A stretch of 64,000 nucleotides of DNA. Origin: Myxococcota bacterium (GTDB lineage Bacteria; Myxococcota_A; UBA9160; SZUA-336). Where the stretch lies: the NCBI GenBank assembly GCA_965247115.1, contig CBDFGR010000002.1:1248001-1312000 (forward strand), written 5' to 3'. The notes beneath the pieces were generated by a model. It was not told the origin of the DNA and ran no database searches. It saw only the letters and a list, made by a program, of their open reading frames with translations. Below, piece by piece: positions 2,281 through 48,687 of the stretch (its first letter is position 1; the number at the start of each line of letters is the position of its first letter). Position numbers and translations under genes: made by a program.

Positions 2281-3519
2281 CTAGACGTGCCGCAGGGCCT
2301 CGGCTGGGCGAAGGCGGGCGGCCTTGAGAGCCGGCCACAGGGCCGAGATCACGGCCGTCACGACGGCCAAGGTGACGGGAACCGCTACGTCCGCAAGCTC
2401 GACGGCGGGGTACATCCGCACTCCGATCCCGTAGTCCCCCAAGGCATCGGAGAAAGCCGAGATCTCCAGCCCCACCTCGCCCACCCAGAGCACGACGGGA
2501 ATGCCGATCCCCAGCCCGACCAGCGTCCCGGCCACGGTCAGGAGCAGCGACTCCAGCAGGACGAGCGCGATCAGGCGACGCGCCTGCAGGCCGAGAGCAC
2601 GCATCACACCGAACTCGCGGATTCGCTCGTAGACCGCAGTAAGGAGCACGTTCGCGATTCCGAAGGCCATGGCGACGAACACCACGGCATAGAAGATCCA
2701 GCGAACGTTGCTCATCAAGTCGAGCATGGCCGCGAGGCGCGGCTCGCGCTCCTGCCAGGTCAGGACCTCCAGTCGCTGCTCGGGCAGGACCTCGCCCAGG
2801 CGCGTTCGCGACCAGGCCTGCACGACGGTCCCGGCGTCCGGATCGTCGACCGCCGCGACCACGGCCGTGATCCTGTCGCCGACGTCGAGAAGCCGCTGCG
2901 CGTCCTCGAGCGCAACGAACAAGAATACCTGATCGAAGGCCGTGGACACGGTGCGGTAAATTCCGCCGACGCGGAACGCCCCCAGTCCGTAGTCGCCGGG
3001 AACGCGCACCACGACCTTGTCGCCCAGTCCTACCCGAAGCCGCTCCGCGAGCTCGGCGCCGACCAGAATGGGACGGTTCCGGCGACCGGCCGGCACCTCC
3101 AGATAGGACCCCGCGACCAGCGAGTCCGCCACGCTCGAGACGTCGCGCTCGAGAGTCGGCACCACGCCCACCAGTACGGCGCGCGAGCTGCGGCGCGCGC
3201 TCTGAATCAAGCCCCCGCCCTGCAGGCGCGGCGCGGCATGCACGCCGCTACGTGTCGAGAGCTCCTCGACGATCCGGCGACCAGAGTCCGGGATGCTCCG
3301 ATCCGGATCCGGGCTCGCATGGTAACCCTCTGCGTGGACAGCGAGGTGGCCCAGCTGGGTCCGCACCGCTGTGTCCGTCATCTGCTTCATCAAGCCGAGC
3401 ATCCAGGCCATCAGCACCAGCATTCCCCACAGACCGATGGTGATCGCGGTCACGACGATCGCGCTGCGTCGCCAGCCGCGCCACAAGTTGCGCCAGGCGA
3501 TCCGCACGAGCACACCCAC
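2281..3519 (-). CDS. ABC transporter permease, FtsX/LolC-E family
   Basis: AWRNLWR N-terminus, large periplasmic loop, ERIREFGVMRALG motif, C-terminal TM helices. Confidence 0.9.
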   Translation of the reverse strand: MGVLVRIAWRNLWRGWRRSAIVVTAITIGLWGMLVLMAWMLGLMKQMTDTAVRTQLGHLAVHAEGYHASPDPDRSIPDSGRRIVEELSTRSGVHAAPRLQGGGLIQSARRSSRAVLVGVVPTLERDVSSVADSLVAGSYLEVPAGRRNRPILVGAELAERLRVGLGDKVVVRVPGDYGLGAFRVGGIYRTVSTAFDQVFLFVALEDAQRLLDVGDRITAVVAAVDDPDAGTVVQAWSRTRLGEVLPEQRLEVLTWQEREPRLAAMLDLMSNVRWIFYAVVFVAMAFGIANVLLTAVYERIREFGVMRALGLQARRLIALVLLESLLLTVAGTLVGLGIGIPVVLWVGEVGLEISAFSDALGDYGIGVRMYPAVELADVAVPVTLAVVTAVISALWPALKAARLRPAEALRHV

Positions 3520-3520
3520 T

Positions 3521-4759
3521 TCAGGTCTCGCGGAGCGCGTCGACGGGACGGCCGCGGGCTGCCCGTACCGCAGGTGGCAGCGCGGCGAGCAGGGCCACCA
3601 CGCTCAGCGCCAGGGCCGTGCCCACAAGCTGACGGGCGCTGAGCTGGACCTCCATCACCGCGTCGATCTCGAAGAGCTTCGCCATCTCCGCGAGCTCCCC
3701 AGTTGCGATGGGAAGCGGGTGCGCCGTGAGCCAGAGCAGCAGCGGCACGGCGACGCCAAAGCCCAGCGCGAAGCCGAGCAGCGAGAGCTGGAACGACTCC
3801 AGCATGACGAGCGCGAACACCCCCCGCGGCTTCAGGCCCAGCGCCCGGAGCACGCCGAACTCGTGCACGCGCTCGAAGACGGACATCAGGACGGTGTTGA
3901 GCAGCCCGAAGCCAACGACCACGATGATCACGGCGAGGGACAGCCAGCCCCCGACGCGGTCCATCAGCATCAACTGGATCACCTCGGGGACGAGCTGCTC
4001 CCAGGAAAGGATCTCATAGTTCGTGTCGGGGAACAGGCTCAGCAGCTGGGGGCCGAGGGGCGCGACGGCATCGCTGTCCTCCACGAAGAAGGCGACGTGA
4101 GAGACGGCCTGGCCGACTTCCAGGAACTCCTGGAGCGTCTGCAGGTCGATCAGCGCGGCGTAGCCGTCGAAGTCCCCGAGGCCGACCTCTATGGTACCCA
4201 GCACCGGGAAGCGATCGGCGGACTGAGAGCCGTAGTAGTCCGCTGCGATCAGGATCACGCTGTCCCCGGCGCCAACGCCGAGATTCCGGGCGAGCACTTC
4301 GCCCAGGACGAGACCACGCACCTGTGCCGCAGAACCTCGCGCATCTTCCAGCGAGCTCCCCAGCTTTGTGAGCACGCTCTCTCTGTCCAAATCCACTCCG
4401 ATCAGCCAGGCGGGCCGGCCTCGGGAGCCCTCGCGATCGGGCATGGCCAGCGCCCAGGACTCGAGCCGCGGCGCCCAGCCCTCGACCAGCGACAGCCCGT
4501 CGAGCTCCCGGCGCGAGTCCGCGTCGAGCGTCATCCCGTAGTCCAGCGTGCGGTGCTCCCGATAGCCCGCAAGGCTGACCTCGTAGTGCCCGGGATAGAC
4601 CCGCACGGTGTTCTCGATCCAGCGCTCGTAACTCCCCTTCTGAATGGCGAGCGTGGTGAGGGTCAGGGCGCTTGCGAACATCGCCGCGGCCGTCGTGAGC
4701 GCGGTGCGACGGCGGTTGCGGCCCAGGTTCCGCCACGCGAGCTGGAGCAGCGCGATCAA
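3521..4759 (-). CDS. ABC transporter permease, FtsX/LolC-E family (second subunit)
   Basis: AWRNLGRNRRR and ERVHEFGVLRALG motifs; TTG start at 4759 overlaps the upstream stop. Confidence 0.88.
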   Translation of the reverse strand: MIALLQLAWRNLGRNRRRTALTTAAAMFASALTLTTLAIQKGSYERWIENTVRVYPGHYEVSLAGYREHRTLDYGMTLDADSRRELDGLSLVEGWAPRLESWALAMPDREGSRGRPAWLIGVDLDRESVLTKLGSSLEDARGSAAQVRGLVLGEVLARNLGVGAGDSVILIAADYYGSQSADRFPVLGTIEVGLGDFDGYAALIDLQTLQEFLEVGQAVSHVAFFVEDSDAVAPLGPQLLSLFPDTNYEILSWEQLVPEVIQLMLMDRVGGWLSLAVIIVVVGFGLLNTVLMSVFERVHEFGVLRALGLKPRGVFALVMLESFQLSLLGFALGFGVAVPLLLWLTAHPLPIATGELAEMAKLFEIDAVMEVQLSARQLVGTALALSVVALLAALPPAVRAARGRPVDALRET

Positions 4760-45182: not shown

Positions 45183-45940
45183 GCCTGCACGCGGGCGTCG
45201 GCGTCCCTGCGCGGGACCGCGCGCGCCTCGAGCGACTCTGTCGCTACGTGGCCCGGCCGCCCATCGCCACCGAGCGTCTCTCCGCTCTCCCCGACGGGAA
45301 TCTCTCCTACCGGCTCCGGCACCGCTGGCGCGACGGTACGACCCACGTCGTGTTCGAACCGCTCGAGCTGATCGAGAGGCTGGTAGCCCTGATCCCACCC
45401 CCCCGTGCGCACCAGGTCCGCTACCACGGAGTGCTTGCCCCCTGTGCCGGCTACCGCGATGCGGTCGTTCCCGGCCACCTCTATCCGGCCACCACAACTC
45501 CCGCTGCCGAGAACGCCGCAGCCCTTGCTGCAGAGCCGGCGCGGGACGAGCCACAGCCTGCGGCCCAGGTCCACAGCGACTGTCGCGGCTCAGAAGCACA
45601 CGCGACGGATGCCGGGCGCCCCAACGCGGGTCCACGACGCGCGGAGTCGGCGCCCGAAGGGGCGCCCGTAACCTCCGCGCACGCTGATCCTGCACAGTTC
45701 TCCTTGGCCCGGCCCCTCAGACAGCGACTCCGGTGGGTGGACCTCATGCGTCGCGTCTTCGCGGTCGACGTCCTCGCGTGTCCGCGTTGCGGAGGCCGCA
45801 TGCAGCTCATCGCTGCGATCGAACAGCCGCGCGTCGTCGAGGCAATCCTCCGCTGTTTGGGACTCTCCGCGCGACCTCCACCCATGGCCCCGGCGCGCCC
45901 AATCGGCCAGCCCGTGCTGCCGTACGTCGACGCCCTCTAG
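45183..45940 (+). mobile_element. IS91/ISCR-like rolling-circle transposase, 5'-truncated
   Basis: SLHAGV...DRARLERLCRYVARPP, RWRDGTTH, RYHGVLAP, W..L.RRVF..DVL.CP.CGGRM. Confidence 0.82.
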
Positions 45941-46356
45941 AGAGACGATCGTCAGATCCTCGCCCTAGCTCGGCTGCAGAACCGATGCGCGCCGCACGGC
46001 AGCCGTGCGCCTCCGCAGGGCACCGAACGGGCTCAACCCCGGCCGCACTGGCGTACCACCCGCTTAAAGGCCCCGCGCCCCGGCCCTCAGACCAATCGAT
46101 AGGACGGGAAGGGCCATTGTCACAACCCGAAAAACCCTCTTAAACTCCCTTCCATAGGGTAGGAGCGCAAGACAGACTTCCCCGATCGCCACAGATTCTT
46201 CGATCCTGGCGTCTGCTCCCGTTGTGGCTAGGCGGTCTCGAGTTGAGAGTTCGTGCTCGTGGTTCCGTCGGAGCAGCGGCGGAGCCTCTACGAGCTGCTC
46301 GGTCTGAGGATTCGTACGAGGGCAACCCCATCGCATCGCGATTCGTTGGCGTGTGT

Positions 46357-46500
46357 GCTCTCCACGGAAACGTGGGAACCATCCTTCCATCTGGGCCTCT
46401 GTCGGCCATCGCTTCGTTTGGTTCTTCGGAGGGGCATAGCTTATCCGTCGGACCTCCAGGCTCTTGGGCCGTCGGCCAGGGAGTTTATGGATGCTCACCT
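46357..46500 (-). ncRNA. Putative bridge RNA / seekRNA of the IS110 element (ends approximate)
   Basis: Two stem-internal-loop units; guides match the left target flank plus core (10/10), core plus right target flank (7/7) and core plus donor end (7/7). Confidence 0.72.
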
Positions 46501-46593
46501 CCGCGGCCACGCAGAGCGTGGCATGCGAACACTCTTCGCGGCTGTGTACTCGAATGATTGCCTTCTCGTCGACTCTCCCGATCGAGCGGTCGC

Positions 46594-47660
46594 CTAGCCT
46601 TCGCACGTCTCCGTGGGCGGACTGGCTCGTCCGGGGTTGTACTCCTCCTCGTCCTTCCACATCCGTAGCACCGTGGCTGCGATCATGCGGGCCAAGCTGA
46701 GCTTTGCGAGCGTCGGCTTCGTTCCACCATCGAGAAGCCGCTGGTAACGCGCATGGATGGGATCCTTGTTGCGCTGCGTGATCACCGTCGTCGCGGCGCC
46801 CTTGAAGATGCTCTTCAAGACGCGATTGTGCTGGCGGGAGAGCCCTCTCGTCTGAGGAACCCGCGCCTGGATCCAGCTTCCATCGGCCGTCTGGACCCAG
46901 TCCGAGCTCGAGCGGGTCACGATACCCAGCCCGCAGTAGCTCCAGAACTGTCGCTTCGTGCGGAAGCGGTGGGGCGTCACGACAATCGGGACCAGTCGTG
47001 CTGCGCGGATCGGTCCGAGGCCGGGTGCGGTCTCCAGGATCGGGACGATGGGGTGCTTCTTCGCCTCTCGAAGGAGATCGGCCTCTGCCTGCTTCTTCTG
47101 CTCCCACAAGAAGTCGAGATGATCGTAGAGTCTTGTCGCTCTCGTCTGCGCGCTGGAGCAGAGCTGCTTCTGCCACTCGTCGCGGCGACGCGGGCTGTAG
47201 ACATCCAGGCCGGTCACCAGGACACCGCGCGATCGGTACAGGCTCTTGATCCGAGCCTGCACCCGCACGACGTCTCCGACCCCCGTCATGTGGATCCGCG
47301 AGAGCTCGCGCAGGCGCGTGAACTCTCGCGGTGCCTTGAAGACCGGCTTGTCGAGGTTCCCCATGCGCAGCTTCTCGGCCAGGCCATACGCATCGCGCTT
47401 GTCGCTCTTCGAACCCCGGCTCTCCGTGATCCCCGCAACCACGATCTCGTCCACGTGAGGACTCAGCGTCTCGTACAGCCACGCGCTCTGAAGTCCCTCT
47501 TCGAAGACCAGATACTTCCGGCCCGGAATCATGCGGACGGCCTCGACCAGGGCCTGGCCGTTGGTCTCACCGGGAAGTCCTTCAACCGCTTCCCTGTCTG
47601 CGAGATCACCGCCAGCGTGCAGCTCGCGGCGTGGATGTCCATCCCGATGTATCGTTCCAT
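46594..47660 (-). pseudogene. IS110 recombinase/transposase with a single frameshift near codon 31
   Basis: YIGMDIH, VFEEG, KSDKRDA (DEDD), PGLGPI, SYCGL....SS; GTGAGACC at ~47568 lacks one G relative to GTG GAG ACC. Confidence 0.85.
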
Positions 47661-47821
47661 TGGTGCCTCCTCTCGTTGGGTATTGTTGATTTCCCAACTC
47701 GAGGATTCCCGACGGGCTCGGGAGGCACCACCCTCCGCCTCCGGGCTCACGGCTCGCCCTGCAGACGCCATACCCCTATGATGCTTATCCCCATCGACAG
47801 ATTTGGGCAGAGGGGGATCCC

Positions 47822-48687
47822 ATGAAGGTCTGCACCCGAGCGCTCGCTCTCCTCGTCATCGCATTGCCGATGACTCTCCACGCCGCACCGGAGGTCGTGC
47901 AGCTGCAGACGGAGGGGCTGAATGCAATCGAGCTCGAGGCCTTCGACCCCTTTCTCGACTCCGTGGTCCTCTCGGGCGTCAGCGAGTACGCGATTAAGGA
48001 GCTGTACCGCGGTGAGTTCGTAGCCGCATTGTACGAGGCAAAGCCGGCGCTTCTGGACATCATCAGTACGCCGTTCCCGTTGGACGAGTTCGTCTGGGTG
48101 ACGAGCGGCGAACTCATCCTGACCGATGTCGATGGACGCAGCGAGAGCTACGTGGCGGGCGACACCCTGCTCGTTCCCAAGGGCTGGAAGGGCACCTGGG
48201 AGATGCGCGGCAACTATCGCGAGTTCGTCGTGATCGAGACCCGCGCCAACGACAGTGTGGATGGCTTCTGGAAGAACATCGGGCTGATCATCGCGGGTTG
48301 GTTCCGGGATACGCCCCACGTGGTGCCGCTGCCGGCCGAGGAGTTCCGGCGCGCCGAACTGGAGCCCGTGCAGCCCACGTCGGCTGATCTCAAGATGACC
48401 GGCGGCGATCCGGAAGCCTGGAAAGCGGTGGGGAGTTCATCGTAGAGCTGTACGCCAGCCCCGCGGCCGTCGTGCAGATCGACGATCCCTTCCCCTACGA
48501 CGAGTTAGTGTGGATGCTGTCTGGCGAGCTGGTTCTGACGCCGACGGGGGGCGAGGCGGTAACCTACGGCGCGGGTGAGGGCGTGGTGGTGCCCAAGGGA
48601 TTCGTGGGAACCTGGGAGACGCGAGGCGACTACCGCGAGTTGATCATCATCGAGACCCGGGCCATGAATCGGGTCCACGAGGAGTAG
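47822..48687 (+). pseudogene. Secreted tandem cupin (DUF861/EutQ-like) protein, frameshifted at ~48425
   Basis: Two homologous FP.DE.VW..SGEL.LT...G....Y.AG....VPKG..GTWE repeats in different frames. Confidence 0.7.

Follow-up and report, generated by a model that had tools for sequence, protein, structure and literature searches.

A predicted two-loop guide RNA in an IS1111-group insertion sequence that interrupts a dispersed repeat of an uncultured Myxococcota genome

Introduction

The bridge RNA of the insertion sequence IS621 was reportedly treated by Hiraizumi et al. in 2024. The described systems closest to the one considered here are the IS1111-group elements ISEc11, ISPa11, ISKpn4 and ISPst6 (Siddiquee et al. 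2024, PMC11187229) and IS621 (Durrant et al., PMC11208160). The guide RNA of IS1111 elements lies in the downstream end (PMC11187229; PMC11208160), and bridge RNAs have been predicted in the right end of 93.0% of these elements (PMC11208160). A criterion for the group is that the longer non-coding region lies downstream of the transposase gene, and the C-terminal domain of its transposases holds a conserved serine in a GL-P----S(t)G motif (PMC11187229), while the subterminal inverted repeats measure 7-17 base pairs (bp) (PMC11208160). ISEc11 adds no bases on insertion, target-like bases being counted to its left end (PMC11187229). Here we analyze a stretch of 64,000 nucleotides (nt) from an uncultured Myxococcota bacterium (GenBank assembly GCA_965247115.1, contig CBDFGR010000002.1, positions 1,248,001 to 1,312,000 of the forward strand), called the window below and numbered from its first letter, in which a 1,636-bp element on the minus strand sits inside a copy of a dispersed repeat. 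We conclude with high confidence that this is an IS1111-group insertion sequence with a 3' non-coding end from which transcription of a two-loop guide (bridge/seek) RNA is predicted; this RNA would bring the element's DEDD transposase to the repeat.

Results

An insertion of fixed position in a dispersed repeat

The extent of the insertion can be read from an empty allele of the same locus. A contig of the public run X3 joins position 46149 to 47786, skipping 1636 bases (one of them ambiguous), and then follows the unique right flank for 165 bases without a difference; here, as for the transposase frameshift below, the evidence from public runs consists of contigs and not of reads. Since the empty allele reads TTAAACTCCCTATCCCCATCG, that is TAAACTCC-CT-ATCC, the inserted unit amounts to 1,636 bp (46151-47786, minus strand, with 46150-47785 equally possible because of a 1-nt ambiguity), and since such an allele exists the insertion is polymorphic. 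Occupied and empty sites differ by exactly this length, within the same ambiguity, with a single position and orientation and with no added bases.

The interrupted sequence is a ~95-bp dispersed repeat that occurs at least 14 times, as comparison within the genome reveals. Its left part (46055-46150, plus strand) ends in ...CTCTTAAACTCCCT, the last 10 nt of which (46141-46150) comprise the left target and core, and closes with the dinucleotide CT (46149-46150, plus strand) that is also present in the empty target. The final six nucleotides of the repeat unit, ATCCCC, follow the element at 47787-47792 (plus strand), in agreement with the uninterrupted copies and the empty-allele contig. Fifteen copies of the repeat were examined in the genome, of which eight are uninterrupted, six carry the element or its remnants and one is too degenerate to call; a first-pass annotation of this DNA had suggested looking for other copies at the same target, and these six are filled in this way. 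The eight uninterrupted copies confirm the left junction at 46150|46151, after which the six occupied copies continue with TCCATAGGG or a close variant. Four further copies or remnants confirm the right end of the element, so that five right ends are available in the genome, four reading ...GATGCTTATCC and one ...GATGCCTATCC. The position of insertion is identical at the six left and five right junctions, and the window copy is the only one in this genome to possess both ends together with the non-coding region.

The two ends of the unit display the organization expected of the IS1111 group. Inverted repeats of 7 nt, CATAGGG at the RNA-bearing end (46153-46159) and CCCTATG at the transposase-proximal end (47774-47780), lie 2 and 6 nt from the termini, are kept in relatives and fall within the 7-17 bp range of the group. 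The non-coding DNA measures 443 nt downstream of the transposase gene (46151-46593) versus 126 nt upstream (47661-47786), and the longer region is thus the downstream one. These features, together with the Pfam domains of the transposase described below, bear out the earlier assignment to IS110/IS1111, and the strings quoted in the first-pass annotation were all found in the window at the positions given there.

Some further observations concern the element ends and the repeat. A perfect 10-nt inverted repeat (46207-46216, TGGCGTCTGC; 47761-47770, GCAGACGCCA) is set in from the two ends by 57 and 17 nt, and both of its arms are kept in relatives, as GGCGTCTGC near the 5' end and GCAGACGCC in the 3' end. 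In the relative L039 the terminus is duplicated, with the final ~25 nt of the element (GTCTTGCGCTCCGACCCTATGGAA) standing twice in tandem. Another copy of the target repeat (contig C2, 2197371-2199104) holds a second insertion of ~1.73 kb with the same terminal bases (TCCATAGGGTAGGAGCGC ... TGCTTATCC), an interior that is unrelated or decayed, and zero matches to the RNA model introduced below. The region 45248-45940 encodes the C-terminal part of an IS91-type Y2 transposase (plus strand; PF04986, E-value 6.7e-14, the sole PF04986 match of the genome), and the target repeat begins ~115 nt past its stop codon; a Y2 fragment of 50% identity occurs at equal spacing beside another copy of the repeat (contig C2, 823187), the distance to the end of the repeat being 213-214 nt. 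The repeat may derive from a decayed end of IS91-type elements, although only two of the 15 copies lie near a Y2 fragment and the genome has a single PF04986 match.

A conserved two-loop fold of a predicted RNA downstream of the transposase gene

The 3' non-coding end of the element contains a predicted bridge/seek RNA, matched by a covariance model at 46351-46511 (minus strand), with a structured core at ~46503-46357 that consists of an outer stem, a target-binding loop, a donor-binding loop and a terminal hairpin. Relatives were found by protein search in 34 of the 225 genomes of the class, and a scan of the collection gave 601 confirmed stretches, from which 76 loci were retained. In an alignment of 19 non-redundant 3' ends (mean identity 81%), variability clusters exactly at the two proposed target guides, while the second loop is near-invariant among close relatives. 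The RNAalifold consensus of these rows has 32 pairs and comprises an outer stem, an internal loop with a short closing stem, a second stem whose internal loop is closed by GGCC/GGCC, and a terminal hairpin; the same two-loop-plus-hairpin architecture had been drawn earlier from the single sequence of the window.

A covariance model built from the 19-row alignment, R1, recovered 86 matches from 87 sources (367,008 bases); the window holds exactly one match, which is also the only one in the whole genome. Every match lies a few tens of bases past the transposase stop codon, even where the proteins are only ~40% identical, and the loci come from contigs labelled Myxococcota, Gemmatimonadota and Acidobacteriota. 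Across 70 distinct rows, 94.9% of cells are base-paired, compared to 79.5% in shuffles and 31-50% with slid partners, and 24 of the 32 pairs are altered on both sides, controls that overstate significance because the 70-row alignment is fitted to the model structure and its sequences are related by descent. An Rfam scan of 45500-48500 returned just two sub-threshold chance matches and no family. In one locus on an Acidobacteriota-labelled contig (L132), three identical R1 matches (2630-2785, 3220-3375 and 3810-3965, at a spacing of 590 nt) lie downstream of a single transposase gene, a tandem triplication of the RNA-bearing end.

Proposed guides that follow the flanks and the element end

Three short segments of the predicted RNA can be read against the insertion site and the end of the element. 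The left target guide, UAAACUCCCU (46478-46487, minus strand), is identical to the plus-strand flank plus core at 46141-46150 over 10/10 positions, as had been claimed, and a listing of repeat pairs also gives this match (10 nt, 100%). The right target guide, GGAUAAG (46440-46446, minus strand), had been described as complementary to the core and right flank over all seven positions. Because the target lacks an extra T (see below), this segment fits the occupied junction, C-TT-ATCC, 7/7 and the empty site, C-CT-ATCC, 6/7, and the claim stands for the former and not for the latter. The right donor guide, AUGGAAG (46384-46390, minus strand), corresponds to the last 5 nt of the element plus the junction dinucleotide, and its earlier reading as the complement of core and donor end is upheld 7/7 in the window. 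When the 443-nt non-coding end was shuffled 20,000 times, the 10-mer match arose 6 times and the two 7-mer matches 461 and 480 times.

The first-pass annotation had proposed that the guides should covary with the flanks across homologues, and a comparison of cognate with non-cognate pairs indicates that they do. For this comparison the element ends were placed by a perfect 7-nt donor-guide match downstream, which was available for 64 of the 86 R1 matches, and the other 22 were dropped. The left target guide agrees with the 3' flank at a mean of 6.85/10 positions in 55 unique cognate pairs versus 3.52 in 2,926 non-cognate pairs, and scores of at least 9/10 were reached in 20/55 and 54/2,926, respectively. 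The right target guide agrees with the 5' flank at a mean of 6.26/8 positions in 31 unique pairs versus 3.32 in non-cognate pairs, with at least 7/8 in 16/31 cognate and 16/846 non-cognate pairs. Of the 11 nearest relatives, L031 and L032 match their 3' flank with the 5' segment of loop 1 at 10/10 positions, L030 at 9/10, L029 and L043 at 10/11, and L039 at 7/10. The three variable bases in the 3' segment of this loop shift with the 5' flank (GCA in L031, AGC in L043, GAA in L033, CGA in L037).

The donor guide follows the end of the element in the same fashion. In 37 unique elements whose junctions were placed without using the RNA, the 5' junctions by a GCAT-motif rule, the first 5 nt of the donor guide equal the last 5 nt of the element in every case (37/37; variants ATGGA, ATAGA and ATAGG). 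The complete guide varies with the element end as ATGGAAG, ATAGAAG, ATAGAAC, ATAGGAC, ATAGATC, TCGGGAG and CTAGAAG. Four guides had been proposed, the left donor guide as a partial match; the other three hold, and a left donor guide was not found, the 5' side of loop 2 matching the donor end at 4/7 positions with no covariation. A search of the non-coding end with the donor end was uninformative, its best same-sense match being the subterminal repeat itself and its best complementary match a 6-mer of the outer stem.

The missing left donor guide favors an alternative in which the RNA guides the choice of target only, as a narrow seekRNA, while the ends are recognized by the transposase through the subterminal repeats, loop 2 is structural and its match to the element end stems from common descent. 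The near-invariance of the second loop among close relatives points the same way, as does the 82-nt ISEc11 seekRNA, which supports transposition (PMC11187229), and in many IS1111 RNAs the donor-binding nucleotides are not in a simple internal loop (Durrant et al., PMC11208160), a remark with which the lack of a left donor guide here agrees. We nevertheless regard this alternative as unlikely, since the loop 2 segment changes with the terminal 5 nt across subgroups (ATGGA/ATAGA/ATAGG in 37/37), and TCGGG and CTAGA, each seen in single loci, also track the element end.

A DEDD transposase gene lacking a single base in the assembly

The transposase gene (46594-47660, minus strand) was assigned to the DEDD type by Pfam, NCBIfam and alignment, and has 355 codons in intact relatives. 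Alignment with 10 homologues reveals a gap of 1 nt in the assembly between 47568 and 47569, and the gene is split there into two overlapping minus-strand open reading frames, 47771-47529 and 47697-46594, the longer of which matches PF02371 (E-value 2e-11) and the C-terminal half of PF01548. One of the homologues is an intact paralogue (contig C3, 1212324-1213388; 93% identical) with an uninterrupted 355-codon gene and full-length PF01548 and PF02371 domains (profile positions 1-149 of 155). It matches NCBIfam NF033542 ('IS110 family RNA-guided transposase') with an E-value of 1e-35 and a score of 123.5 bits, under the curated cut-off of 140. Its C-terminal motif reads CGLGIVTRSSS, in which S252 is invariant in 12 aligned relatives and the proline and glycine of GL-P----S(t)G are absent. 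The same protein (L002:1638-2705) also matches NCBIfam NF052498, a TIGR-Tas RNA-guided endonuclease, over residues 133-298 (E-value 5e-14; 52.8 bits, under the cut-off of 100), which probably reflects a shared RNA-interaction domain.

The frameshift that had been noticed earlier is real in the assembly, but the missing base is present in contigs of this copy from runs X1 and X3, which equal the window copy save 0-1 other letters, and in mixed contigs of run X11. The depth supporting the base at 47568 is 6.53/6.53 in X1, 5.72/5.72 in X3 and 96.5/107.5 in X11, a run of short contigs from several relatives; X1 may be the source sample, and part of the contigs from four RNA-labelled runs hold it as well. 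The frameshift may not be present in the population. It is rather improbable that the window copy is a dead relic. Such a reading would account for the 1-nt deletion relative to 10 homologues, for the single RNA copy in the genome and for the lack of an RNA end in the genome's only intact paralogue, whose similarity to the window element stops ~50 nt past the stop codon. Against it stand the full-depth presence of the missing base in the contigs of this copy, with the X11 contigs alongside, and the empty allele, which makes the insertion polymorphic; the presence of the base and the empty allele together argue for current or recent mobility of the element.

Different dinucleotides in the element and its target

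The target had been read as TAAACTCC-CT-TATCC around a CT core common to target and element. This proved to be one base too long: the empty allele has CT-ATCC in its place, and the extra T is absent from all eight uninterrupted repeat copies (...CTCCCT|ATCC in seven, ...CTCCCT|CTCC in one) and, in two further genomes, from the empty targets of relatives (5/5 clear copies and 3/3). CT is retained as the dinucleotide of the target, but the core is not shared, as the element has a dinucleotide of its own, TT (47785-47786, plus strand; AA in the element sense), which was located by comparison of junctions, is invariant in the subgroup and is matched by the right target guide. In relatives of other subgroups the transposase-proximal end starts GCAT... 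with the dinucleotide in front of it, and in 37/37 elements the 5'-junction dinucleotide and the right-target-guide core are identical, over five states (AA, AG, AC, TC and CC). The two junction dinucleotides differ in 15 of these 37 relatives. Within the subgroup of the window element the 3' dinucleotide is AG in 12, AA in two, CG in one and GA in one; the 5' dinucleotide is AA (TT in the plus sense) in 16/16 members whatever the 3' dinucleotide, and TT therefore travels with the element. An element-borne TT matches the convention used for ISEc11, in which the target-like bases belong to the left end (PMC11187229).

Other sources of empty sites were less useful. A paralogous pair of flanks (contig C2, 2162118, empty; contig C3, 1212197, occupied) was rejected for the question of the extra T as too old, being 87% alike over 332 bp. 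The orthologous flank had no usable match in 30 relatives, which hence supplied no empty site, and a search for empty targets of Acidobacteriota-type relatives with the 18-nt predicted target (up to 3 mismatches) gave no more matches than the control.

These comparisons leave a very small chance that the RNA is an IS621-like bridge RNA with four guides and one shared CT core, that the true target is TAAACTCC-CT-TATCC, and that the CT-ATCC copies are non-targets, all targetable copies being filled: three guides would then fit perfectly (10/10, 7/7 and 7/7) and none of the 15 repeat copies is an unoccupied CT-TATCC, but the empty allele of this very locus has CT-ATCC, the extra base is missing from empty copies in three genomes, and the fixed 5' AA of the subgroup is independent of the 3' dinucleotide and so element-borne.

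Proposed transcription of the RNA, and evidence against the assignment

Transcription of the guide RNA and its binding by the transposase are inferred by analogy with ISEc11, ISPa11 and ISKpn4, for which they have been shown. RNA-labelled sediment runs yield contigs over the RNA region with a depth peak at 46352-46485; these contigs come from relatives and may stem from DNA carry-over. The same depth profile is found in X11, a run with no recorded library type, so the peak reflects conservation among relatives and not expression. Neither a sigma-70-like promoter nor an intrinsic terminator was found in a scan of the minus strand. In the majority of family members a TTGAC(A) motif is conserved ~20 nt inside the 3' end; the window has TTGCGC at 46167-46172 (minus strand). 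The motif could be the -35 element of a circle-junction promoter, by analogy with ISEc11.

The sediment contigs, the X11 profile and the promoter scan all weigh against an RNA-guided IS1111 element, and so do a number of other results. The pairing statistics come from a model-fitted alignment of related sequences, the energy of the single-sequence fold is ordinary (z -0.87, with 36/200 shuffles folding at least as well), and the transposase score is below the NF033542 cut-off. The left target guide scores 6/10 or less in 22 of the 55 unique cognate pairs; of the 11 nearest relatives, three (L034, L028 and L037) have no match in the 3' flank, L033 has one only with an indel, and the end of L044 is disrupted. 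To these are added the missing left donor guide and a remnant at contig C3, 339740, which reads GATGC-CT-ATCC and is unexplained.

We consider it highly improbable that the conserved 3' end works at the DNA level (by offering binding sites to the transposase, or by forming single-strand hairpins in a transposition intermediate), which compensatory changes would suit equally and with which the lack of promoter, terminator and transcript in the minus-strand scan and community-run contigs is compatible, since in tested relatives the RNA of this region co-purifies with the transposase and acts in trans (PMC11187229), and since stem pairs are frequently G-U (GU in 11/19 rows at one pair), corresponding to G-T on the coding strand and to A-C on its complement, so that the fold is strand-specific.

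Beyond the right end of the element lie two neighbouring cupin-domain open reading frames (47822-48445 and 48472-48687, plus strand), with ~70% DNA identity to each other. The first matches PF05899 (E-value 3.1e-07), and its start codon is 36 nt downstream of the element.

Discussion

The element of the window resembles ISEc11, ISPa11, ISKpn4 and ISPst6 (Siddiquee et al. 2024, PMC11187229), as described there, in its DEDD transposase with PF02371, its subterminal inverted repeats and its long downstream non-coding region, and in having two short RNA segments that match opposite strands of the target and overlap at the insertion point. Like ISEc11, it adds no bases, and its target-like bases are part of the transposase-proximal end. 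It differs from these four in its host lineage of uncultured Myxococcota and relatives, in a target that is a ~95-bp dispersed repeat and in a transposase that falls under the NCBIfam cut-off; the comparison is by description, and the window element is known from sequence alone.

With IS621, as portrayed in PMC11208160, the predicted RNA shares two internal loops, a 5' side of loop 1 in the sense of the left target plus core, a 3' side of loop 1 that complements the core plus right target, a 3' side of loop 2 that complements the core plus right donor, and guides that include the core. Unlike the RNA of IS621, it lies in the opposite non-coding end and would be transcribed toward the end of the element; it also lacks a recognizable left donor guide, the subterminal repeats are longer, and the element has TT and the target CT in place of one core shared by target, donor and guides. 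A fixed position and orientation in a multi-copy repeat are likewise reported for ISPpu9 and ISPpu10, which occupy REP sequences, and for IS4321 and IS5075, which occupy Tn21 inverted repeats; unlike the targets of ISPpu9 and ISPpu10, the repeat of the window is no REP palindrome.

The following mechanism would account for the arrangement of the locus. The bottom strand of TAAACTCC-CT would be bound by the left target guide and the top strand of ATCC by the right target guide, while the right donor guide would base-pair with the end of the element. At its transposase-proximal end the element would bear a crossover dinucleotide of its own (TT in the plus sense). On strand transfer, the CT of the target would stay at the RNA-bearing junction and the TT of the element at the other, a step that is conjectural. 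Retention of both dinucleotides, one at each junction, would explain the additional T of the occupied site relative to a shared-core model, and the match of the right target guide to the TT of the element would explain why this guide fits the empty site less well than the occupied junction. A circle junction, if formed, might read GATGC-TT-TCCATAGG. This proposal is compatible with re-joined donor sites having gone undetected for ISEc11 (PMC11187229), and with the single-strand excision of IS621 that a preprint reports. We tentatively suggest, as a less likely possibility, that the right target guide of this subgroup has co-evolved with the TT of the element and not with the CT of the target, and that each insertion leaves CT and TT at opposite junctions.

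The first-pass annotation had presented the locus as a candidate new programmable recombinase/RNA pair. The IS1111 element and its guide RNA are retained, with less novelty, as the class was already described in 2024 (Siddiquee, Durrant): the evidence supports well a new example of that mechanism, and no new principle. It adds a clearly documented natural case to the class of RNA-guided IS1111 elements, with guide, target, element ends and empty allele all readable at one locus, and the multi-copy repeat provides many potential landing sites. The alignment and model could seed the annotation of an RNA family that is absent from Rfam, with 86 loci. The mismatch between the dinucleotides of element and target is a small, testable clue to strand exchange in the IS1111 branch, which is less studied than IS621. 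If the tentative proposal is true, this mismatch would be a trace, left in natural insertions, of one-strand (copy-out, paste-in) transfer by IS1111 elements, and the guide would be tuned to the occupied junction, and thus to excision, above the empty site and insertion.

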